A DNA stretch of 7,905 bases from a virus (lineage: Duplodnaviria; Heunggongvirae; Uroviricota; Caudoviricetes): the IMG/VR virus record IMGVR_UViG_2713896795_000006, positions 1 through 7,905 of that record. One strand, 5' to 3'. The translations under genes were made by a program, and so were the position numbers. The notes below the pieces were generated by a model. That model was not told where the DNA came from and searched no databases. It was given only the letters and a program-made list of their open reading frames with translations. Position 1 is the first letter of the stretch; every line of letters begins with the position of its first letter. Of this stretch, positions 1-7,905 are shown one piece after another.

Positions 1-1131
1 TCAAATGACCAGTTTTTTCCACTCCTTGCCGCGTGCATCGTTGTAAATATCGGTCATTTTTTGATTCGAATGACCCAGCAAAATTTGGGTATCAATTCCC
101 TGCTCTCTGAACAATCGCTCTGATAAAGATCTCTGCTCATGGAAAGAGGGTGGGGTGCCATTAGCACGCCAGTTGTAATCCACAGAATCCCGCGCTTTTT
201 TAAATGCAACGGTTAACGTTGCTGGCTTAACCATCCCGCCGCGCTTAGCTGTCCCTTTCGCGTGATGATGGTGCAATAGCCACGGACTAAGAACGCAATC
301 GCGACAGGATGACACCACATCATCCAGGGTGAGATTTAATTTATCGCAACGCAGAGCCAGAGGGATGGCAATCCGGGTTCCTGTTTTTTGCTGTTCGACA
401 TGAAGATAACCATCCCGGATATCCGAAAATTGCATTTTGCAAATATCTGAAAGGCGCTGGCCTGTCATCAGTGCCAGCAGCATACCGCGCTGTAAAAAGT
501 AACCATCCTTTTCCGCTGCGTTATAAATCATCGTCCACTCATCAAAAGTCAGTCGCTGTCTTGATATCCGCACCTGTGGTTTTTTTGCCGATTCTGCAGG
601 GTTAAAGCCTGGCGGGACATCGCCCGTTTGCTGAGCCTCCCGGAAAACATCGATCAGTACCTTCCTGAAAATTTGTCCCATTCTGTTATGTCCTCTGGAC
701 TTGTACTCTTCCAGCACCGATACCACATCCTTTACGGTTATGGCATCTAACGGTCTGGTGCCAAAACGTTCATCAAAAACCCTGAGAGGGGCCGCTTTCT
801 GTTTCAGCGTGTTGAGTTTGATTTCTCCGTTTTCATATCTTTCCTGTTGAATTTTTCTGTAATTATTCAGAAAAATGGAAACGGTTGATGAACCGCCGGT
901 ATCATTAATAATTTTCTCCTGCAGACTGAGCATTTGCTCCATTTGTTGTCTGGCAAGACGGCTGTTCGCTTCTGCTGCAATGGTTTCCGCCAGTTTCTGG
1001 TCAATACTGCCGAGTCCATGATTTTTACCTGTGATGGGATGCCTGTAACGCCAGTAAACTTTGTTATTTCTTTTGTCAAAATACGGAGATAATCCCGGAA
1101 CAGCGGTTTTATATTTTCGCGGGCGTGCCAT
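1..1131 (-). CDS. int: Phage tyrosine integrase (lambda Int-like), 376 aa, complete; stop codon at window positions 1-3
   Basis: ORF track 1..1131 (-). C-terminus ...LLGHSNQKMTDIYNDARGKEWKKLVI closely parallels the lambda Int C-terminus (LLGH...Y..DRG.EW) carrying the catalytic Tyr. N-terminus MARPRKYK...KVYWRYRHPITGK resembles the arm-binding domain of lambda-family integrases. SD-like AGAGGA about 9 nt upstream of the ATG at 1131. The 5' end overlaps the upstream excisionase gene by 23 nt, the typical xis-int arrangement. Confidence 0.9.
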   Translation of the reverse strand: MARPRKYKTAVPGLSPYFDKRNNKVYWRYRHPITGKNHGLGSIDQKLAETIAAEANSRLARQQMEQMLSLQEKIINDTGGSSTVSIFLNNYRKIQQERYENGEIKLNTLKQKAAPLRVFDERFGTRPLDAITVKDVVSVLEEYKSRGHNRMGQIFRKVLIDVFREAQQTGDVPPGFNPAESAKKPQVRISRQRLTFDEWTMIYNAAEKDGYFLQRGMLLALMTGQRLSDICKMQFSDIRDGYLHVEQQKTGTRIAIPLALRCDKLNLTLDDVVSSCRDCVLSPWLLHHHHAKGTAKRGGMVKPATLTVAFKKARDSVDYNWRANGTPPSFHEQRSLSERLFREQGIDTQILLGHSNQKMTDIYNDARGKEWKKLVI

Positions 1132-1357
1132 CTTCCAGTATCCTCTTTAAAGCAGGGTGATCTGTGGCGATCACCTCCGGCTTGTTTACCATTCCGACAA
1201 AGCGAGCTCGCGGATCCACTCGCCAGTGTCTTCCAACTTTTTTGGGGAGAGGAAATATCATTCCGGCTTTAGCGTATTTACTTAACGTGCCCGGAGTAGG
1301 GACCGGATCGCTGAATTCCTCTTTTGCCCACTCAGTGAGCAGAATAAGTCTTGCCAT
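1109..1357 (-). CDS. xis: Excisionase (lambda Xis-like), 82 aa
   Basis: ORF track 1109..1357 (-). N-terminal segment LILLTEWAKEE...GMIFPLPKKVGRHWRV aligns by eye with lambda Xis (LTLQEWNARQ...CRIFPPPVKDGREY). Sits immediately upstream of and overlapping int. No strong SD before the ATG at 1357, so the start is slightly uncertain. Confidence 0.75.
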   Translation of the reverse strand: MARLILLTEWAKEEFSDPVPTPGTLSKYAKAGMIFPLPKKVGRHWRVDPRARFVGMVNKPEVIATDHPALKRILEDGTPAKI

Positions 1358-1420
1358 GAGTATCGTTCGCTAATCATGGTCGCCGCCACTATAGCTGGGG
1401 GCGACGACCGGGGTTGAACA

Positions 1421-3892
1421 TTAAAAATCAGACTGATTCGGGATCAGTTTTTGCCAGATTGCTGAAACGTATTTCGCCTGGTGACGGGCATCATCCAGCG
1501 CATTGTGGCGTATGCCTTCGAATTGAATAGGCGTCCTGGCATCGAAGTCTATGGATTTTCCCAGTTCAATGATTGTGCGTACATCGCGATCGTTGTAGTA
1601 GCGCCACGGGCAGGGGATACCCTGCCGTTCATATGAACGGCGTAAAATCACGTTGTCGAAGTTGGCTCCATTTCCCCAGACCTGAACAAAAAATTCACCG
1701 GAGTTTTCGTCGATAAATTCCCGCAATTGCAGTAGTGCATCATCTAACGGAATTTCATCGGTCAGAATGGCAGATTGCGCCTCACGTGATTGCTTCAGCC
1801 ACCATTTAATGACGTCACGATCAATGACTCCGCCAGCAGTATCCAGATCGATGGTCTTGCTAAATTCCGGTCCCATATCTCCGGTTTGTGGATCGAAAAA
1901 TATTGCGCCTATTGAGATAATCGGGGCATCGGGATTTTTTCCCATGGTTTCAAGGTCGATCATCAGATGAATCCCCGCTCTGCTGGTGGATGTGAGTTTA
2001 TGATGACCGTTCACCTCAATTAAGGGATCTGTCGCCTCGCCAGTTTTATTATCGCTGGCGTGATGCTGATTGCCGCCAGGGTTCTCCTTGTGTGGATGTT
2101 CAGCGCCTTCCATTTCCTCCGGATCATTTTCCTGAACTTCAACCTGATTCTCTTCATCGAATGTTTCCTGGTATGTTGCGTCGCCCATCACCGCGCCACA
2201 ATCAGGGCAGTTGCCGCCACAGCTCTGACCGCAGGCGGTGCAGACTTTTTCCGGTTCCTGTTGCGCTACTGGTTCGGATTGTTTCGTTTCTGGCTCGTTT
2301 TGTAACGCATTTGGGCTGTTTTGTTCCGCTTTTTGGTCGTTCTGTTCCGATTCTTGCTGGTTCTGGTTTACAGAATCGCGGGTTTCAATCCCCTTCACCC
2401 ATTTCGGATCATTCGGGTCGCTAATCCCTGCAACAAATTCTCCGCGAGAGGCAGCAAGCAACTTATCGGCGTCAGGCTGGCTGATATTGGCTGCCTGCAT
2501 AATTTTGTTTACTTCTTCAGCGGTAACTTTTACCGGCTCTGGTTGTGCGGTCGTGTCAGATGCACCAGTATTTTGTTGTGAGCCTGAGTATGTACCGTTT
2601 TTGCGGGCAAAATATTCTTCTTTCGTGATTTCAGTAGCCCCTGCAGTCAGCGCCTTATTCAGACCAGAAAGTTTGTTTGCACGACCATATTTTTCGCCAT
2701 CTTTATCTGTGAAGAGGAAGTAGAACGGCCCCTCACGCTCTACAGATGGTTCGACTTCCACTTTGCATTCGGTTTTTTCGTTGTCCGGAATTGCCGTTTC
2801 CACTGCATCAGTTTCTGGTACTGGCGACGAGAGAGTATCAGTTGCGCTCTGATTTGTTCCTTCATCTTCAAACACGCCCTTTGTAGTCAGGTATTCAGTA
2901 ATGTATTTGTTCAGTGCCACAGGGTCTTTGTGAATGTCGATCGGACGTTCACGGACAAGGCCAAAAATAGTCTGGCGGTCGTAGCGAAGGGCATCAGGCT
3001 GTTTGCGCATTGATGCCGAGATACGCTTCCAGTCTTCGCGGTCGTTGTCGATAACTTCATTTTTTGCCCAGCGATGGATGCTGCCGTCAATGTTTCCGGC
3101 ATCAATGTCATCAGGCCACAGAGCGTAGGCCAGTTCATCATCCAGTGTTTTCCATGTCTGCTTGTATTCGCGACGAATGGTGGCAGTGGCTGGGGGGATT
3201 TTCGCTACTGAGTTTTCAGTGTTCTGCCGGTTGACTCTGGCGCGGGCAAGATCAACAACAGACATGTATTTCCCGGTTTCTTTGCGTTCGGCTTCGCGAC
3301 GTTTTTTCCAGGTGCGTAATTCTGTCTGGATCTCAGGCCATTTTGCACCCGGCTTACATTTATGTTTAACCCACCCGATGGCGAGCAGCTTAAGCTCTGA
3401 ATACATGACGTTAACTTCAGGCATTTTCATCAATGCCTCAACGATATGCCCATCGAATGTTGCCATGTCTTCCTGCAGTAATTCCTGAGCACTAATCACC
3501 ATATCAACGGTGATGTTTTCACATGTACCGAACTTAACCAGGACCGCGTTCTGTACTTCAAGGGACAGCTTGTCAAAATTGACGTTCATCGGATCGGATT
3601 CTGGTTCGACCGGAATAAAGGAAGCGGATTCCTCATCCCAGCGGTTTTCCTGCATATATTCGGTATCCCAGGAGTCGATAGCAGGGCGGGGCATGCCGGG
3701 TTTATCCTCGCAGACAAGAAATTTATAAGCGCAGTCCTGAGCAGCCGGATATTGCTCCAGGAATTGCCAGGTAAATTTGGCACGGGCGCGGCGTTCGTCA
3801 CCGGCTTCAATGGCAGTGGCTACAGCAACTGCACCTTCTTCCTTTATTGCCTGTTCGTCCGGAATGGCGGCGCAAATAAAGACTTTACTCAT
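1421..3892 (-). CDS. Large prophage exonuclease, 823 aa: C-terminal DnaQ/Orn-like DEDDh 3'-5' exonuclease domain, Cys-rich zinc-knuckle, acidic Q/E/N-rich linker; commonly annotated in prophages as exodeoxyribonuclease VIII-like
   Basis: ORF track 1421..3892 (-). The C-terminal about 190 aa carry the three DEDDh motifs: motif I LMIDLETMG, motif II VWGNGANFDNVIL (Orn-like GNSxxxD), motif III IRHNALDDARHQAKY (Orn-like HxALDD...Y). Upstream are a Cys cluster CTACGQSCGGNCPDCG and a low-complexity acidic stretch (NQNQQESEQNDQKAEQNSP...EPETKQSEPVAQQEPEK). It sits between xis and the dicB-like module, where lambda has exo/bet and Rac has recE/recT. SD GAGG about 10 nt upstream of the ATG at 3892. 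Confidence 0.8.
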   Translation of the reverse strand: MSKVFICAAIPDEQAIKEEGAVAVATAIEAGDERRARAKFTWQFLEQYPAAQDCAYKFLVCEDKPGMPRPAIDSWDTEYMQENRWDEESASFIPVEPESDPMNVNFDKLSLEVQNAVLVKFGTCENITVDMVISAQELLQEDMATFDGHIVEALMKMPEVNVMYSELKLLAIGWVKHKCKPGAKWPEIQTELRTWKKRREAERKETGKYMSVVDLARARVNRQNTENSVAKIPPATATIRREYKQTWKTLDDELAYALWPDDIDAGNIDGSIHRWAKNEVIDNDREDWKRISASMRKQPDALRYDRQTIFGLVRERPIDIHKDPVALNKYITEYLTTKGVFEDEGTNQSATDTLSSPVPETDAVETAIPDNEKTECKVEVEPSVEREGPFYFLFTDKDGEKYGRANKLSGLNKALTAGATEITKEEYFARKNGTYSGSQQNTGASDTTAQPEPVKVTAEEVNKIMQAANISQPDADKLLAASRGEFVAGISDPNDPKWVKGIETRDSVNQNQQESEQNDQKAEQNSPNALQNEPETKQSEPVAQQEPEKVCTACGQSCGGNCPDCGAVMGDATYQETFDEENQVEVQENDPEEMEGAEHPHKENPGGNQHHASDNKTGEATDPLIEVNGHHKLTSTSRAGIHLMIDLETMGKNPDAPIISIGAIFFDPQTGDMGPEFSKTIDLDTAGGVIDRDVIKWWLKQSREAQSAILTDEIPLDDALLQLREFIDENSGEFFVQVWGNGANFDNVILRRSYERQGIPCPWRYYNDRDVRTIIELGKSIDFDARTPIQFEGIRHNALDDARHQAKYVSAIWQKLIPNQSDF

Positions 3893-3972
3893 TTTGTTTT
3901 AACCTCATTACAGATTTAAGGGTGAACAAATCCCTGCCATTGCTGGCATCTAAAAATGAAACCGGATATTAA

Positions 3973-4176
3973 TTACGGTGCTGCTTTAAGTCCTGCCGGG
4001 ATTTCGTTATTGTCCATGCGAATAACTTTATCAACCGGATAACAGTTGCCGGGAATTTTCTGTTCCGCTGCGGCAGCCATGCATTCTTTCATTGAGTCAT
4101 GTATACCAATAACAAGATCGACTGGTTCGCCTGTATTAAGAAAAACTGTCAGAACGAGTGCAAATGCTGTATTCAT
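3973..4176 (-). CDS. ydfD: Small hydrophobic-N-terminus protein, 67 aa, YdfD-like (DUF1482-type prophage protein)
   Basis: Internal ATG of ORF-track ORF 3973..4230, giving MNTAFALVLTVFLNTGEPVD...IPGNCYPVDKVIRMDNNEIPAGLKAAP. SD AAGGA 8 nt upstream. The ATG lies 2 nt after the dicB-like stop (TGAcaATG), suggesting translational coupling. Same position as ydfD downstream of dicB in Qin. Family assignment is from memory, not searched. Confidence 0.65.
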   Translation of the reverse strand: MNTAFALVLTVFLNTGEPVDLVIGIHDSMKECMAAAAEQKIPGNCYPVDKVIRMDNNEIPAGLKAAP

Positions 4177-4178
4177 TG

Positions 4179-4361
4179 TCAGCGTCCTTTTTGCATCAGG
4201 CGTAAACGGGCCAGCATTGAAACAATGCATATTTTATTTAATAACTCCCGTTCGTGTTTTCTCTTATTAATGGCATCTTCAGTAAATACAGGGTTACTGA
4301 TTCTGACACCAATTTCAAAACAACCTTCAGACGTATTAACGTTTGGTAATAACGTTTCCAT
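4179..4361 (-). CDS. dicB: DicB-like cell-division inhibitor, 60 aa
   Basis: ATG-initiated part of ORF-track ORF 4179..4466: METLLPNVNTSEGCFEIGVRISNPVFTEDAINKRKHERELLNKICIVSMLARLRLMQKGR, which closely matches my recollection of E. coli DicB (MKTLLPNVNTSEGCFEIGV...). SD GAGGA 7 nt upstream of the ATG at 4361. The longer track ORF begins with GTG at 4466 and has no support. Lies downstream of DicF, as in the Qin dicB operon. Confidence 0.8.
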   Translation of the reverse strand: METLLPNVNTSEGCFEIGVRISNPVFTEDAINKRKHERELLNKICIVSMLARLRLMQKGR

Positions 4362-4530
4362 TATCGCGTCCTCAACAATGAATTTTGTGATGCGGTGCCT
4401 GGTGCCTCCAGGTGACGTTAACCAGTTAACAATTAACGCCGGATACAGAGAATCCACCCATAACACTGTTTTTGGTTTTAACTGTTCCGCGTGCGCTTAG
4501 CCGCATTCACCACATCACAAAATTCACTTT

Positions 4531-4570
4531 AAAAAGGGCGGCAGAGCAGTCACGGAGTAAAACTGATACC
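4531..4570 (-). terminator. Intrinsic terminator forming the 3' end of DicF
   Basis: On the minus strand, GGCGGTA...(loop)...CTGCCGCC stem followed directly by TTTTT (plus 4531-4535 AAAAA). The stem is about 7 bp including one G-U pair. Confidence 0.6.
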
Positions 4571-4588
4571 GCCAAACGTCACCAGAAA
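4536..4588 (-). ncRNA. dicF: DicF small regulatory RNA (53 nt, ftsZ-targeting, Hfq-dependent family)
   Basis: The reverse complement of 4536..4588 reads TTTCTGGTGACGTTTGGCGGTATCAGTTTTACTCCGTGACTGCTCTGCCGCCC and is followed by TTTTT (plus 4531-4535). This matches the DicF sequence as I remember it, including the 3' GC-rich stem (GGCGG...GCCGCC) and U-tract. Position between the ydfB-like and dicB-like genes matches the Qin dicB operon. Confidence 0.85.
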
Positions 4589-4924
4589 ATTGATAACAGA
4601 GGGCGTTGCAGCGAGGTTGTCACTTAAGCGTATGGTCAACCTGACAACCCGGTGTCCTCAACGGGGGAAGGAATAACCCCGCCATACTTACCGCCGCGCC
4701 ATTTCGCGGATTGCCACAACCGGAAGCGCACGGTCGAAGTAATTTAACGACAAACCTCATAGGTGAAGGCCTTCGCCGTACGCTTTTGTGTTATGCCCTG
4801 ACTTTTCAGGGAAATATCCTTTCAGTAAACTGTCAGTGCCGGATTCTTATCCGTGTCCGGCGCACGACCACACGTAGCAGCGTGTTGGTCTCCATTTTTA
4901 ATTCAGCCCTTAATGGAGGATAAA

Positions 4925-5192
4925 ATGGCAAAATTTACAGTCAGGATCGAACTTCGCGATTCCAGTTCCGCTGATTACGATAAGCTTCATGGGATTCTCC
5001 AGAACGATTACAACCTCTTTAGGGAACACCTACCGTCTTCCTAATGCCGAATATATATATTCAAGCAAGAATGAAGACAAAGAATCTGTTGCTGACCTTG
5101 CTGAATCAGTGGCCTCAAAAGTTAAGAAAAATCCCGGAGTTCTTGTTACCGAATCTAATGGGCGCTATGTAAAAAACTTAGATGATGCTTAA
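4925..5192 (+). pseudogene. Small plus-strand gene split across two frames (39-aa ORF 4925..5044 with strong RBS, plus overlapping 67-aa ORF 4989..5192 with no RBS); probably a single gene of about 90 aa disrupted by an indel, or a coupled pair
   Basis: Strong SD GGAGGA (4915-4920) 4 nt before the ATG at 4925 gives MAKFTVRIELRDSSSADYDKLHGILQNDYNLFREHLPSS*. The second frame is open from 4914, but its only start is the ATG at 4989 with no SD; it encodes MGFSRTITTSLGNTYRLPNAEYIYSSKNEDKESVADLAESVASKVKKNPGVLVTESNGRYVKNLDDA. The frames overlap over 4989-5044. Orientation is opposite to all flanking genes. Confidence 0.4.
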
Positions 5193-5335
5193 CCTTCATC
5201 ATCACGACCTGACTCAATAGCGTGCAATGCCAGCCAGATGCGGGCTTCAGTGCCTGCATTTGGTTCCAGTTGCTGGAGGCGTTTTGCATCCTCCAGAAGC
5301 AGAGCGATAACGTGTTTTAATTCTGTTTCGTTCAT
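5189..5335 (-). CDS. Small hypothetical protein, 48 aa (YdfB/YdaG-type position in the operon)
   Basis: Not in the ORF track (below its length cutoff). ATG at 5335 (plus 5333-5335 CAT) preceded by SD AGGTG; the start lies 1 nt after the ydfA-like stop (TAAaATG). Translation: MNETELKHVIALLLEDAKRLQQLEPNAGTEARIWLALHAIESGRDDEG*. Stop at 5189-5191. Confidence 0.55.
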   Translation of the reverse strand: MNETELKHVIALLLEDAKRLQQLEPNAGTEARIWLALHAIESGRDDEG

Positions 5336-5336
5336 T

Positions 5337-5492
5337 TTATTCACCTGAATGTCTTACCAACCAACGACGCGCGCCAGATTCGGTTTTAAACGTTTTGCTT
5401 TTTGTATACGTCATCGCCGTGAACGTTCCGTCCTGGTTGGGAAACACGCCGCACACCAGAGATTCGTTGTTGCCAAGATCGATAGTTTCCAT
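5337..5492 (-). CDS. ydfA: Small prophage protein, 51 aa, YdfA/YdaF-like; first gene of the leftward (dicB-type) operon
   Basis: Not in the ORF track (below cutoff). ATG at 5492 with SD GAGG 4-5 nt upstream; stop TAA at 5337-5339. Translation: METIDLGNNESLVCGVFPNQDGTFTAMTYTKSKTFKTESGARRWLVRHSGE. The length (51 aa) and first-gene position match YdfA of Qin. Homology is recalled, not searched. Confidence 0.6.
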   Translation of the reverse strand: METIDLGNNESLVCGVFPNQDGTFTAMTYTKSKTFKTESGARRWLVRHSGE

Positions 5493-5671
5493 GTTGACCT
5501 CATTTCCCCTTATCGCCGGGGTAGCGGAACAAAAACCTGCTGCATAGTTAAAAGTTGAACCCTGCCGTCACTTTCGAATGCCTCGGGCTGGCTACATTGA
5601 CCCCTGATCACCTGCCGGGTAACTCGAAGTATTGCCCTGCGTTCTGTGGGGCGGGGTGGGTTGGTATTTGT

Positions 5672-5699
5672 AGTTTAATAAACATTAAACATAAGTCAA
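5672..5699 (-). promoter_or_regulatory. Candidate early-left promoter (PL-like) for the ydfA-ydfB-dicF-dicB operon: -35 TTGACT (plus 5694-5699), 16-bp spacer, -10 TAAACT (plus 5672-5677)
   Basis: Minus-strand hexamers are identical to those of the candidate rightward promoter at 6687-6716. An operator-like motif AAAACTAAAC at 5703-5712 resembles the AAACACTAAAC repeats in the divergent region. Sequence-based prediction only. Confidence 0.4.
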
Positions 5700-5722
5700 G
5701 CAAAAACTAAACCACAGAGCAC

Positions 5723-5761
5723 AACAACCGCAACGCTTTTGATAAAGTCGTTGCGGTTGTT
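5723..5761 (-). terminator. Strong hairpin 22 nt downstream of the parE2-like stop; probable terminator or insulator of the repressor-antitoxin-toxin operon
   Basis: Perfect 13-bp stem AACAACCGCAACG (5723-5735) with CGTTGCGGTTGTT (5749-5761), loop 5736-5748, extendable by CTTT/AAAG with one bulge. Flanking U-rich stretches on both strands are imperfect, so this may act as a weak or bidirectional terminator. Confidence 0.45.
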
Positions 5762-5783
5762 ATGTTTCTATTGGTGGTGAAAG

Positions 5784-6062
5784 TTAGGGAAACTGGCGTC
5801 TTGCGTGGATCACGTTTACTACTTCAACGCTTGATGTTGTTACGCGGTATAGAACTATATAGTTAGGGTGGGCCACAATCTCACGCAAGCCAGGAACTCT
5901 GTCGCTTGGTGGGTATAAATACGGGTGTTCGGATAACGGTAACACACAACCCCTTAATCGCTGCCATAAGCGCTCTGCCGCATCTATGTCGAAACGAGCA
6001 ATATAACTAGTTATATCATCTAGGTCGGTATCTGCGCTTTCAAGCCATAACACGGGTAACAT
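5784..6062 (-). CDS. parE2: ParE/RelE-family type II toxin, 92 aa (ParE2-like)
   Basis: Internal ATG of ORF-track ORF 5784..6158: MLPVLWLESADTDLDDITSYIARFDIDAAERLWQRLRGCVLPLSEHPYLYPPSDRVPGLREIVAHPNYIVLYRVTTSSVEVVNVIHARRQFP. The C-terminus (YIVLYRV...VEVVNVIHARR) is typical of ParE/RelE toxins. The start lies 1 nt after the antitoxin stop (TAAaATG). Confidence 0.9.
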   Translation of the reverse strand: MLPVLWLESADTDLDDITSYIARFDIDAAERLWQRLRGCVLPLSEHPYLYPPSDRVPGLREIVAHPNYIVLYRVTTSSVEVVNVIHARRQFP

Positions 6063-6063
6063 T

Positions 6064-6255
6064 TTACTGCTTGCTCCGTTCCTTGCGCATTTTAGCAAAG
6101 CGTTCTGCCATTCTGCGCTCAACTTCGTCATGGGGAATTGCTGGGCGCGGATCTGCAAGGCTCGTTGCTACTTTCGCACGCAGCCATTCGTTGTAACTGT
6201 TTTCTTGTTCAATGGTATCAAACTCAGAAACCATTGGTGAAAGGGCTCTATTCAT
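6064..6255 (-). CDS. paaA2: Small antitoxin, 63 aa (PaaA2-like)
   Basis: Internal ATG of ORF-track ORF 6064..6309: MNRALSPMVSEFDTIEQENSYNEWLRAKVATSLADPRPAIPHDEVERRMAERFAKMRKERSKQ. Strong SD GGAGGA 5 nt upstream of the ATG at 6255. Matches my recollection of the 63-aa PaaA2 antitoxin of the E. coli O157 paaR2-paaA2-parE2 system. Sits directly upstream of the ParE-like toxin. Confidence 0.85.
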   Translation of the reverse strand: MNRALSPMVSEFDTIEQENSYNEWLRAKVATSLADPRPAIPHDEVERRMAERFAKMRKERSKQ

Positions 6256-6275
6256 GTTTCCTCCGGTTTTATAAC

Positions 6276-6647
6276 TCAGGCGCGGCGGCATTTTTGCGCC
6301 GCAATCCATCTCGCTATGAGATCTTCCATTGATTCTTTTTTCTGTTTTAACTCGCTGATTATCTGGCGTTGCTCATCCTCAGGGAAGGCTGAAAAAATCT
6401 GCAATAATTCCAGTTGATTAGACGTTAATCCTGCATGCGGTGGAGAAACCTCTGGTTGTTCTGCGTATTCCGCATCCAGATACCCCTCCGGCATCCCGTA
6501 TGTTTGCTCTATTCTTCTGGCTGCCTTTTCTCCAAACGAGGCTCTCCCACTCATTAGCTGAGATAGGTAGCTCTTCTCTTTGGGTGGCAGAGTTTTATCT
6601 TTAAACCACTCCTTGAGACGTAAACGGCGAATTTCTTTTTTTTGCAT
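6276..6647 (-). CDS. paaR2: HTH (XRE/cI-like) transcriptional repressor lacking a peptidase domain, 123 aa (PaaR2-like; C-terminal region DicA-like)
   Basis: ATG at 6647 within ORF-track ORF 6276..6710 (the track start at 6710 is GTG). N-terminal HTH-like segment KSYLSQLMSGRASFGEKAARRIEQTYGMPEGYLD. C-terminal LTSNQLELLQIFSAFPEDEQRQIISELK resembles the DicA C-terminus (LSPKELELLELFNALPESEQ...). No SD before the ATG, and a -10-like GATAAT lies 7 nt upstream, consistent with a leaderless, cI-like transcript. First gene of the three-gene operon. Confidence 0.8.
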   Translation of the reverse strand: MQKKEIRRLRLKEWFKDKTLPPKEKSYLSQLMSGRASFGEKAARRIEQTYGMPEGYLDAEYAEQPEVSPPHAGLTSNQLELLQIFSAFPEDEQRQIISELKQKKESMEDLIARWIAAQKCRRA

Positions 6648-6744
6648 GTGGTAATTATCTTTAGTAATCACTAAACAAGCAAATACTTGACTTAATGGTT
6701 TATTAAACACTAAACTTGCAAAAAAACACTAAACCGAGGAAGGT
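6648..6744. promoter_or_regulatory. Divergent promoter/operator region between the repressor and the cro-like gene: three direct repeats AA(A/T)CACTAAAC, candidate PR (-35 TTGACT 6687-6692, -10 TAAACT 6711-6716) and candidate leaderless PRM-like promoter (minus strand; -35 TTGCTT = plus 6677-6682, -10 GATAAT = plus 6654-6659)
   Basis: CACTAAAC occurs at 6669-6676, 6708-6715 and 6727-6734 (spacings 39 and 19 bp); the second copy overlaps the PR -10 and the third the predicted start region. The 97-bp AT-rich interval lies between divergently oriented regulator genes. Sequence-based prediction only. Confidence 0.5.
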
Positions 6745-7047
6745 ATGACATTAAAAGAGTTTATTAAATCATTGAGGGTTGGTGATGCCAAGAAATTCGC
6801 GGCCAGACTTGGTGTATCGCCATCTTACCTATCGCAAATGGCGTCTGGACGAGCAGCGATATCTCCAACCCGCGCCCTTATGATCGAATCTGCGACGGAA
6901 GGCCAAGTAAGTAGGGCGGAGCTACGGCCCCATGATTGGGAGATTATTTGGCCTGAGTATGCGCGCGGTATTCGTTTGGGGCAAACGCATGTAGCTCATG
7001 CTGAAGGTGATTGTAGTGCATGCTTATCTGATGGAGTTGATTCATGA
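6745..7047 (+). CDS. ydaS: Cro-like HTH regulator, YdaS family, 100 aa
   Basis: ORF track 6745..7047 (+). Strong SD GAGGAAGG 4 nt upstream. Segment LGVSPSYLSQMASGRAAISPTRALMIESATEGQVSRAELRP matches the YdaS-type HTH pattern (LGVSP...P...IE.AT.G.V....LRP). Stop overlaps the next gene start (ATGA). Confidence 0.85.
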   Translation: MTLKEFIKSLRVGDAKKFAARLGVSPSYLSQMASGRAAISPTRALMIESATEGQVSRAELRPHDWEIIWPEYARGIRLGQTHVAHAEGDCSACLSDGVDS

Positions 7048-7469
7048 AAATCAAGCATGAACACATCCGCATGGCGATGAATGCCTGGGCGCATCCGGAC
7101 GGCGAGAAAGTTCCGGCTGCAGAGATTACCAAAGCGTATTTTGAACTGGGAATGACGTTTCCGGAACTGTACGACGATTCACACCCAGAAGCCCTGGCTC
7201 GCAATACTCAGAAGATTTTCCGCTGGGTGGAGAAAGATACTCCTGATGCGGTTAAAAAAATTCAGGCGTTGTTACCAGCGATCGAAAAGGCAATGCCGCC
7301 ACCGCTGGTGGCCCGAATGCGTAGTCACAGTTCGGAGTATCACCGGGAGATTGTCGAGCGACGGGATCGGCTGGTGAAAGATATCGATGAGTTCGTTGCA
7401 TCAGCGATCGTTCTGTTCGACCAGATGAATCGCGGTGGTCCGGCAGGAAATGCCGTGGCGGTGCATTGA
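7044..7469 (+). CDS. ydaT: YdaT-family protein, 141 aa (putative CII-like regulator or toxic protein of Rac-type prophages)
   Basis: ORF track 7044..7469 (+). N-terminal MKIKHEHI... is characteristic of YdaT as recalled. Start codon overlaps the ydaS stop (ATGA), indicating translational coupling. Confidence 0.8.
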   Translation: MKIKHEHIRMAMNAWAHPDGEKVPAAEITKAYFELGMTFPELYDDSHPEALARNTQKIFRWVEKDTPDAVKKIQALLPAIEKAMPPPLVARMRSHSSEYHREIVERRDRLVKDIDEFVASAIVLFDQMNRGGPAGNAVAVH

Positions 7470-7539
7470 CTGGCAATATTTATACTGGATCGCTTCCGGT
7501 AGTGCGTGATTAAGAGATTCGGTATCAGAAGAGGCAATT

Positions 7540-7905
7540 ATGGCCGCATTACCATACATGCAACTGTACATAGCTGATTACCTGGCCGACACCATGCATT
7601 TGTCAGCAGAGGAGCATGGTGCGTATTTGTTGCTGATGTTCAATTACTGGCAAACAGGAAAGCCAATACCTAAAAACAGGCTGGCAAAAATTGCCCGTCT
7701 GACTAACGAGCGATGGGCTGATGTTGAACCATCCTTGCGGGAGTTTTTTTGCGATAACGGCGATGAATGGATGCACCTTCGGATTGAGGAAGATCTGGCA
7801 TCAGTCAGGGAAAAATCAATAAAAAAATCGGCTGCGGGAAAAGCATCTGTTCAGGCCAGGAGAAACAGAAAGGAATCATATGCTCAAACAAAACACGAGC
7901 GAAAT
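7540..7905 (+). CDS. ydaU: DUF1376/YdaU-like prophage protein, N-terminal 122 codons; 3' end beyond the window
   Basis: Not in the ORF track because no stop lies in the window. ATG at 7540 with SD GAAGAGG 5 nt upstream; open to the window end. Translation MAALPYMQLYIADYLADTMHLSAEEHGAYLLLMFNYWQTGKPIPKNRLAKIARLTNERWADVEPSLREFF... fits the DUF1376 signature (Y.aDYL.DT.HLS..EHGAYLLL...YW..G.P.P). Confidence 0.8.
   Translation, partial: MAALPYMQLYIADYLADTMHLSAEEHGAYLLLMFNYWQTGKPIPKNRLAKIARLTNERWADVEPSLREFFCDNGDEWMHLRIEEDLASVREKSIKKSAAGKASVQARRNRKESYAQTKHERN

Follow-up and report, generated by a model that had tools for sequence, protein, structure and literature searches.

Positions 5784-7469 of the 7,905-nucleotide stretch of viral DNA analyzed here (the window) raise the question of whether a toxin-antitoxin (TA) pair is embedded in a prophage immunity region and, if so, whether the arrangement is a known one. 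A sequence-only reading had proposed that the cI position is held by a three-gene operon encoding an HTH repressor, a 63-aa antitoxin and a ParE-family toxin, that YdaS- and YdaT-like genes hold the cro/cII positions, and that the whole corresponds to the paaR2-paaA2-parE2 system of a cryptic prophage of E. coli O157:H7, leaving it to be confirmed whether the copy is intact and whether its operators differ. In that prophage, CP-933P (Sp12), the repressor and the TA pair lie at cI and ydaS/ydaT at cro/cII, with a 97-bp divergent promoter region (PMC8630535), and the layout at 5784-7469 agrees with this description. We are highly confident that the region is the lysis-lysogeny (immunity) switch of a lambdoid prophage adjoining ompW, and that it represents an allele of the paaR2-paaA2-parE2/ydaS-ydaT region characterized in CP-933P. 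The system is already known, in that its proteins, operators and bistable behavior have all been published, and the present copy is an intact, slight variant of it.

Identity and integrity of the five genes

Each of the five products has a match among the PDB chains of O157:H7 proteins (E from 1.2e-36 to 2e-85), and because of this the five-gene correspondence is not a chance one. The operon proposed in the sequence-only reading was recovered as paaR2, paaA2 and parE2 on the minus strand at 5784-6647, in the order repressor-antitoxin-toxin with gaps of 20 nt and 1 nt, and the cro/cII positions are occupied on the plus strand by ydaS and ydaT (6745-7469), likewise as proposed. The five genes equal those of CP-933P in order, orientation and lengths, and both prophages adjoin ompW.

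The ParE-family toxin encoded by parE2 (5784-6062, minus strand; 92 aa) is identical to PDB 5cw7_B at 91/92 residues (E = 1e-59), passes the Pfam ParE_toxin model (PF05016; 60.5 bits vs a cut-off of 23) and shows no difference from WP_049595151.1 of a pigeon strain, I70V being its sole change relative to O157. The antitoxin gene paaA2 (6064-6255, minus strand; 63 aa) yields a protein identical to PDB 3zbe at 62/63 residues (E = 1.2e-36; the difference is E13D), which passes the Pfam PaaA2 model (PF21217; 70.7 bits vs a cut-off of 27); no HTH or RHH model of Pfam matched PaaA2, as befits an antitoxin with no DNA-binding domain. The third member, paaR2 (6276-6647, minus strand), encodes a CI-like repressor of 123 aa with 121/123 residues identical to O157. 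No difference from PDB 7nkv ("Phage repressor protein CI") occurs in its residues 1-65, and the two changes relative to O157, G66E and G67V, directly follow the crystallized N-terminal domain. The C-terminal part is weakly similar to DicA, and the search of PaaR2 against Pfam returned no match whatever, including none to a C-terminal S24 peptidase domain; for the CP-933P protein, absence of the self-cleavage (S24) motif and of a mitomycin C response has been described (PMC8630535). Near-total identity of the three proteins thus bears out the claimed match to the O157:H7 system.

For CP-933P PaaR2, the N-terminus MQKKE and a transcription start at the ATG were found experimentally (PMC8630535). 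Positions 6620-6716 are identical to the copy with the mapped start, with a GATAAT hexamer 6 nt upstream of the paaR2 ATG, and we infer that paaR2 is leaderless here as well, transcribed from its ATG at 6647. A mechanical ORF list gave longer forms of parE2 (124 aa, TTG), paaA2 (81 aa) and paaR2 (144 aa, GTG); on comparison of the predicted proteins, the shorter starts are preferred because they match solved and N-terminally sequenced proteins. Tight coupling of start and stop codons, claimed for the operon as a whole, holds for paaA2 and parE2, where the paaA2 stop (6064-6066) and the parE2 ATG (6060-6062) are one base apart, but not for paaR2 and paaA2, which are separated by 20 nt containing a GGAGG ribosome-binding site. 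The ydaS/ydaT junction is also tightly coupled, through an ATGA overlap at 7044-7047.

On the plus strand, ydaS (6745-7047) encodes a Cro analogue of 100 aa, identical at 96/100 residues to PDB 8c7k ("Phage antirepressor protein Cro"; E = 2.4e-61) with four substitutions relative to O157:H7 strain Z563; it matches Pfam YdaS_toxin and HTH_3, and its PHROG annotation is transcriptional repressor. The CII analogue encoded by ydaT (7044-7469; 141 aa) matches PDB 8bt1 (E = 2e-85) and 3c4r (6e-81), as well as Pfam YdaT_toxin and a PHROG annotated "CII-like transcriptional activator".

Base by base, we aligned the region with the Z563 copy, and identity was 97.1% for parE2, 98.4% for paaA2, 97.6% for paaR2 and 96.4% for ydaS, amounting to about 3% divergence across the core cassette. 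There are eight base differences in parE2 (seven silent), three in paaA2 (one amino acid change) and nine in paaR2 (two changes), and since most of them are silent, the pattern fits purifying selection. A decayed remnant was considered and ruled out because all five ORFs are full length, with none truncated or frameshifted, and the substitutions are mostly silent; the copy is thus intact, which the earlier reading had left to be confirmed. For ParE2 V70, PaaA2 D13, PaaR2 E66/V67 and the four substitutions in YdaS we assume neutrality, as they are conservative, located in a linker or recurrent in other copies.

Promoters, operators and a hairpin beyond parE2

The control region OR between paaR2 and ydaS (6648-6744) has the same length as in CP-933P, 97 bp. 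It agrees with O157 at 96/97 bases, and the one mismatch, a T in place of C at 6717, avoids both the promoter hexamers and the conserved half-sites of the operators. A promoter consensus scan located PR on the plus strand (-35 TTGACT, 6687-6692; -10 TAAACT, 6711-6716). Opposite to it we place PRM on the minus strand (-10 GATAAT, 6654-6659; -35 TTGCTT, 6677-6682), and we read four 18-bp operator repeats at 6659-6676 (IR1), approximately 6679-6696 (IR2), 6698-6715 (IR3) and 6717-6734 (IR4); these coordinates are our own, with IR1-IR4 and the PRM hexamers positioned from the published half-site and mapped transcription start (PMC8630535). The repeats were found in an inverted-repeat search and fit the published half-site GTTTAGTAA (PMC8630535).

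Beyond the operon, a PL-type leftward promoter (5672-5699, minus strand) consists of -35 TTGACT (5694-5699), a 16-nt spacer and -10 TAAACT (5672-5677); in the consensus scan its hexamers are the same as those of PR. This is also the case for PL933P, whose -35/-10 elements are identical to those of PR933P and which has three operators (PMC8630535). Overlapping the promoter is a putative 18-bp operator palindrome at 5673-5690, reading GTTTAATAA followed by ACATTAAAC, with one more ACTAAAC half-site at 5706-5712. ACTAAAC occurs four times in the window (0.59 expected), only at the PL site and in OR. The PL/OL differences from O157, at 5670, 5691 and 5701, all fall outside hexamers and conserved half-sites. 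To the question of whether the operators differ from the known ones, the answer is therefore essentially no: one base in OR and three around PL/OL, none within these elements.

The high-affinity YdaT operator OM, TTGATTCATGAAAATCAA, spans the ydaS stop and the ydaT start (7037-7054). It matches the published site, TTGATT-N6-AATCAA (PMC9986795), exactly, is unique in the window even when one mismatch is allowed, and is identical in the copies of O157, the coliphage Evi and the pigeon strain.

Between the parE2 stop and PL lies a strong hairpin (5720-5764, minus strand), an inverted repeat with 21-nt arms and, for the minus-strand RNA, a folding energy of -36.6 kcal/mol (z = -8.25). The O157, Evi and pigeon-strain copies all retain a hairpin, but the present one is more perfect than that of CP-933P, and the O157 and Evi versions fold less stably (-21.7 and -16.2, respectively, vs -32.4). 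No compensatory changes were found among the four copies; in the O157 and Evi alleles the stem is weaker whichever strand is considered. The element is probably a terminator or a 3' stabilizer of the paaR2-paaA2-parE2 transcript, both its function and the strand on which it acts being inferred, and by position it would be the counterpart of lambda t_imm.

Predicted control circuit and proposed role of the TA pair

Extrapolating from the CP-933P experiments, PaaR2 and YdaS would compete, as CI and Cro analogues, for overlapping operators in OR and at PL, and this competition would give rise to two heritable states, with either the paaR2 operon or ydaST on. Bistable, heritable expression of the CP-933P region was shown on a reporter plasmid (PMC8630535), and by homology the present copy would be expected to share both bistability and immunity. 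YdaT, as the CII analogue, would bind OM and activate a leftward PRE-type promoter feeding the paaR2 operon; PaaA2 and ParE2 would be expressed from the repressor transcript, occupying the place that rexAB has in lambda. To this scheme we add that the 5720-5764 hairpin may end the operon before PL. Because PaaR2 lacks a LexA-type self-cleavage domain, the switch should ignore RecA.

The architecture resembles that of lambda in its putatively leaderless repressor gene divergent from cro, in having accessory genes that follow the repressor gene and share its transcript, in the repressor operators at PR/PRM and PL, and in the CII-type activator site at the cro/cII junction. Cassette swaps among related phages (as in the imm434/imm21 hybrids) and a cII analogue outside the cassette are further common features. 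Sequence similarity to lambda is, however, not detectable; there are four 18-bp repeats rather than three operators, PaaR2 has no domain for RecA-dependent self-cleavage, and the cargo is a ParE-type TA pair instead of rexAB. YdaT, moreover, is a POU-like tetramer reading an inverted repeat, whereas CII reads direct repeats (PMC9986795). The K-12 regions racR-ydaS-ydaT (Rac) and dicA/dicC (Qin) share a repressor divergent from ydaS-ydaT, with the PaaR2 C-terminus weakly DicA-like, but RacR and DicA have no TA pair downstream. Between K-12 and CP-933P, identity is just 26% for YdaS and 31% for YdaT (PMC8630535).

With parDE of RK2, Vibrio cholerae and Caulobacter, the TA pair has in common the ParE fold and family, a toxin wrapped by its antitoxin, and post-segregational killing. 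It departs from canonical parDE in that PaaA2 has handed regulation to a separate CI-like repressor, and in that ParE2 is reported not to bind GyrA59. O157 ParE2 is toxic and is neutralized by PaaA2, which is degraded by ClpAP/ClpXP (PMC8630535); given that I70V and E13D are single, conservative changes, toxicity, neutralization and turnover would carry over to the present allele by homology. Lacking a DNA-binding domain of its own, PaaA2 would leave control of the pair to PaaR2, and since it is labile to ClpAP/ClpXP, loss of the cassette would free ParE2, which in CP-933P terms would associate with the nucleoid and induce the SOS response, so that the immunity region would be addictive. Post-segregational killing by the CP-933P immunity region has been demonstrated, and the same work detected no ParE2 activity in either transcriptional state (PMC8630535). 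For the latter reason, what the TA pair does biologically has so far only been proposed.

Defense cargo accounts for many of the TA pairs found in prophages, and paaA2-parE2 takes the place of rexAB, downstream of the repressor and co-transcribed with it in the lysogenic state; it might therefore serve mainly in abortive infection or exclusion of other phages rather than as an addiction module. We consider this unlikely. PADLOC models gave no convincing match to any of the five proteins, the only marginal one being YdaS to HTH_VI (E = 0.0072), and it is post-segregational killing that has been demonstrated, a defense phenotype being unreported (PMC8630535). An anti-phage function would in any case bear on the role of the TA pair alone and would not conflict with the remainder of the switch.

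A proposed exchangeable immunity cassette

The region is present in 593 of 5426 complete E. coli genomes (~11%) and in the isolated coliphage Evi, and the same cassette occurs in a Rac-type prophage of the pigeon strain (with intR, recET and kilR). The window itself shows 100% identity to the end of contig LFKC01000010.1 (assembly GCA_001077955.1), reached through an exact match of its YdaS protein, and a 40-mer specific to the present paaR2 allele had no match among contigs representing one genome per species. A single plasmid match was found, in a 1.4-Mb record of evidently chromosomal scale, so this is no plasmid-borne element. Its limits are set by comparison with the PapM-36-2 and C8 prophages, which occupy the same ompW site: 5672-7037 forms a discrete cassette, with flanks 99.7% and 98.4% identical to theirs, and at this spot these prophages have a repressor of the LexA family together with another cro, in contrast to PaaR2, which has no S24 domain. 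Relative to CP-933P, the dicB-to-PL stretch differs, the replication module is of the YdaU/DUF1376 type here vs an HTH O-like protein in O157, and ydaT, owing to its origin in another backbone lineage, reaches only 85% identity. At the protein level, YdaT matches O157 at 127/141 residues (14 differences) and the PapM-36-2 protein at all but two; ydaT lies outside the recombination module that holds the other genes.

These comparisons also bear on whether the operon could be a self-contained tripartite TA module, in which a split antitoxin combines PaaR2 (DNA-binding) and PaaA2 (neutralizing) and PaaR2 has no immunity role. The authors of the CP-933P study themselves raised the split-antitoxin idea, and the division of labor between PaaA2, with no DNA-binding domain, and PaaR2, which down-regulates the operon, is in line with it (PMC8630535). 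We nevertheless regard it as very improbable: PaaR2 operators are also found at a PL-type promoter ~950 bp away that controls other prophage genes, ydaST is the published primary target of PaaR2 repression, the cassette is carried by an isolated coliphage, and in near-identical prophages a LexA-family CI and cro sit exactly where the cassette does, so that it occupies the repressor slot. That ydaS-ydaT is itself a TA pair, making the locus two opposed TA modules instead of a switch, is suggested by the Pfam names, the RefSeq product "toxin YdaT family protein" and a 4-nt gene overlap common in TA pairs, but is the least credible reading and already largely refuted, as CP-933P YdaT showed no toxicity, YdaS binds operators, YdaT turns on PRE and recognizes a defined inverted repeat (PMC8630535, PMC9986795) present here without change, the solved structures are entered in the PDB as Cro-like and as a tetramer that binds DNA, and the PHROG assignment is to a CII-like activator.

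Retaining the immunity switch, we suggest that 5672-7037 would behave as an exchangeable immunity cassette without ydaT. Tentatively, and with less than even confidence, we propose that this TA-bearing cassette moves as a unit among lambdoid backbones, with crossovers at the PL -10 and inside the YdaT operator.

As the system is published and the region is present in about one-ninth of complete E. coli genomes, the locus carries little weight as a discovery. It can, however, be annotated with confidence, with paaR2 as a 123-aa CI analogue in place of the 144-aa GTG ORF, and ydaS and ydaT as Cro and CII analogues, not toxins. The modest new point lies in the sharp cassette boundaries and in the existence of a near-isogenic prophage whose repressor is of the conventional LexA type. 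If the cassette does move as a unit, the present prophage and those of PapM-36-2/C8 would be a natural near-isogenic pair differing solely in the immunity cassette, contrasting a RecA-insensitive PaaR2 and a ParE2 addiction module with a cleavable repressor of the LexA type. Such a pair could test the published idea that paaA2-parE2 guards the immunity region against replacement, or could equally show that it aids cassette invasion, and would thus let experimenters ask what the embedded TA pair does for the prophage.

Identity and layout of the immunity region

The immunity region comprises three co-directional minus-strand genes, parE2 (5784-6062; 92 aa), paaA2 (6064-6255; 63 aa) and paaR2 (6276-6647; 123 aa), opposite plus-strand ydaS (6745-7047; 100 aa) and ydaT (7044-7469; 141 aa), as delimited from the ORF list and the sequence and as claimed in the sequence-only reading. 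The tight coupling of start and stop codons also proposed there holds for paaA2 and parE2 (stop and ATG 1 base apart) and for ydaS and ydaT (shared ATGA), but not for paaR2 and paaA2, which are separated by a 20-nt gap containing a GGAGG site. The upstream, longer starts of the mechanical ORF list were set aside because the shorter ones fit the solved and N-terminally sequenced proteins. We likewise rejected a 144-aa paaR2 from a GTG at 6710 (6276-6710, minus strand), the start chosen by automatic gene calls in several assemblies (comparison sequences L007-L012), since this ORF would cross the operators and PR; in CP-933P, the O157:H7 cryptic prophage, the start determined experimentally is a leaderless ATG, here at 6647, yielding 123 aa (PMC8630535).

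The products were matched to the sequences of O157:H7 chains with solved structures, and then directly to the corresponding locus in strain Z563 (O157:H7). ParE2 is identical to 5cw7_B at 91/92 residues (I70V relative to Z563), and PaaA2 shows a single difference from 3zbe (E13D relative to Z563). Over residues 1-65, PaaR2 matches 7nkv (entered in the PDB under the name 'Phage repressor protein CI') without a difference, and its G66E and G67V substitutions relative to Z563 fall immediately past the crystallised N-terminal domain. YdaS matches 8c7k ('antirepressor protein Cro') at 96/100 residues, with T37A, L67I, S74R and V84A relative to Z563; YdaT matches 8bt1 with E = 2e-85 and carries 14 differences from Z563. 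The Pfam models ParE_toxin, PaaA2, YdaS_toxin/HTH_3 and YdaT_toxin were all passed, and a Pfam search of PaaR2 returned no domain, S24 peptidase included. In PHROGs, PaaR2 and YdaS fall among the transcription regulators, YdaT is assigned to 'CII-like transcriptional activator', and the C-terminal part of PaaR2 was weakly DicA-like in NCBIfam. RefSeq labels PaaR2 a 'hypothetical protein' and YdaT a 'toxin'.

Relative to O157, 8 base differences in parE2, 3 in paaA2 and 9 in paaR2 change only 1, 1 and 2 residues, respectively; being mostly silent, they indicate genes under purifying selection, without decay. With all five genes full length, the copy is intact. The suggested identity with the paaR2-paaA2-parE2 / ydaS-ydaT system is thus borne out by near-identity to the O157:H7 proteins, and both the initial observation and its interpretation are correct: the system is already known, as the sequence-only reading had itself recognised.

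Operators, promoters and the proposed switch

Whether the operators differ had been raised as a question, and they hardly do. The paaR2-ydaS spacer, 97 bp as in CP-933P (PMC8630535), shares 96/97 bases with O157. The sole change is a T in place of C at 6717, 1 base downstream of the PR -10 (6711-6716); within the fourth repeat it occupies the outermost position of the left, non-conserved half. Using the half-site GTTTAGTAA published for the four 18-bp operator repeats of CP-933P (PMC8630535), we placed four 18-bp repeats at 6659-6676, ~6679-6696, 6698-6715 and 6717-6734. Our PRM (TTGCTT-17-GATAAT, minus strand) ends 6 nt before the paaR2 ATG, in agreement with the leaderless start mapped in CP-933P (PMC8630535). 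Beyond parE2, a PL-type promoter (5699-5672, minus strand; TTGACT-16-TAAACT) has the same hexamers as PR, as does PL933P (PMC8630535), and overlaps a palindrome at 5673-5690. Across the whole window, ACTAAAC is restricted to OR and OL (4 matches versus 0.59 expected), and the 3 OL differences from O157, at 5670, 5691 and 5701, lie outside the hexamers and conserved half-sites. A strong predicted hairpin between parE2 and PL (5720-5764; -36.6 kcal/mol, z = -8.25) probably terminates the operon. The published high-affinity YdaT site, TTGATT-N6-AATCAA (PMC9986795), is present exactly at 7037-7054, overlapping both the stop of ydaS and the start of ydaT.

By homology with the CP-933P experiments (PMC8630535), PaaR2 and YdaS would oppose each other at shared operators to give two heritable states, and YdaT, from the ydaS/ydaT junction site, would activate a leftward PRE-type promoter. 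PaaR2 would not be subject to RecA cleavage. PaaA2 and ParE2 would share the repressor transcript, and the lability of PaaA2 to Clp proteases may render the region addictive; ParE2 is reported not to bind GyrA59.

Other features of the window

On the minus strand, the DicF small RNA (4536-4587; full-length Rfam RF00039 match, 76.7 bits, gathering score 48) precedes dicB (4179-4361; Pfam DicB, 128 bits) in the usual cell-division-inhibitor arrangement of Qin-like prophages. An 823-aa 'exonuclease' (1421-3892, minus strand; 92.7% DNA identity to the CP-933P gene) combines YdfE_N, YdfE_C and Rv2179c-like 3'-5' exonuclease domains with a long, acidic, Gln/Glu-rich middle bearing a CxxC...CxxC motif (CTACGQSCGGNCPDCG). 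A GhoS-like / DUF2622 gene (4925-5192, plus strand) has a 17-bp deletion after ~4990 relative to its intact pigeon-strain counterpart (94 aa, annotated 'GhoS antitoxin'), splitting the frame and leaving a 67-aa ORF at 4989-5192; the PapM-36-2 annotation also includes an ORF of this length, 67 aa. The replication module (7540-7905, plus strand, running past the window end) encodes a YdaU/DUF1376 protein (93.5 bits); in related contigs the next gene is for a DnaC/IstB-like ATPase. The module differs from that of CP-933P: an HTH O-like protein takes its place in both O157 and the pigeon strain.

Exchange of the immunity cassette

The window matches the end of contig LFKC01000010.1 (GCA_001077955.1), adjoining ompW, at 100%, and several other sequenced samples have the same arrangement at >=99.6% identity. 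Same-site prophages in the E. coli strains PapM-36-2 and C8 are 99.7% identical to window 1-5671 and 98.4% identical to 7038-7905, whereas between these flanks they have another cro and a repressor of the LexA family (window 5672-7037 versus 6674-7738 of L002, the comparison sequence). The near-identical flanks and different middle therefore define 5672-7037 as a discrete immunity cassette, ending on the left at the PL -10 and on the right inside the YdaT operator, which reads ATGATT-N6-AATCAA in the PapM copy. The exchange follows the known pattern of lambda imm434-type hybrids.

Judged by residue differences (2 from PapM-36-2 versus 14 from O157), ydaT belongs to the backbone. Its 7300-7469 stretch (codons ~87-141), encoding the C-terminal tetramerisation helix, exists as two allele types, one in the window, O157 and PapM-36-2 and the other in Evi, the pigeon strain and PDB 3c4r. 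Base identity falls to 68-80% there from about 85-100% in the 5' part, so ydaT is itself mosaic; a further joint lies at its end, ~7465.

The cassette is also present in CP-933P, in a coliphage from infant stool (the isolate Escherichia phage Evi) and in a Rac-type prophage that carries intR, recET and kilR; the latter encodes ParE2, PaaA2 and PaaR2 proteins with no difference from the window's. Its paaR2-OR segment was found at >=95% identity in 593/5426 complete E. coli genomes.

The window copy should be homoimmune with CP-933P. The sole addition, a mildly useful one, is a near-isogenic prophage pair with alternative immunity cassettes, and this swap bears on the proposal that the toxin-antitoxin pair guards the immunity region from replacement (PMC8630535).
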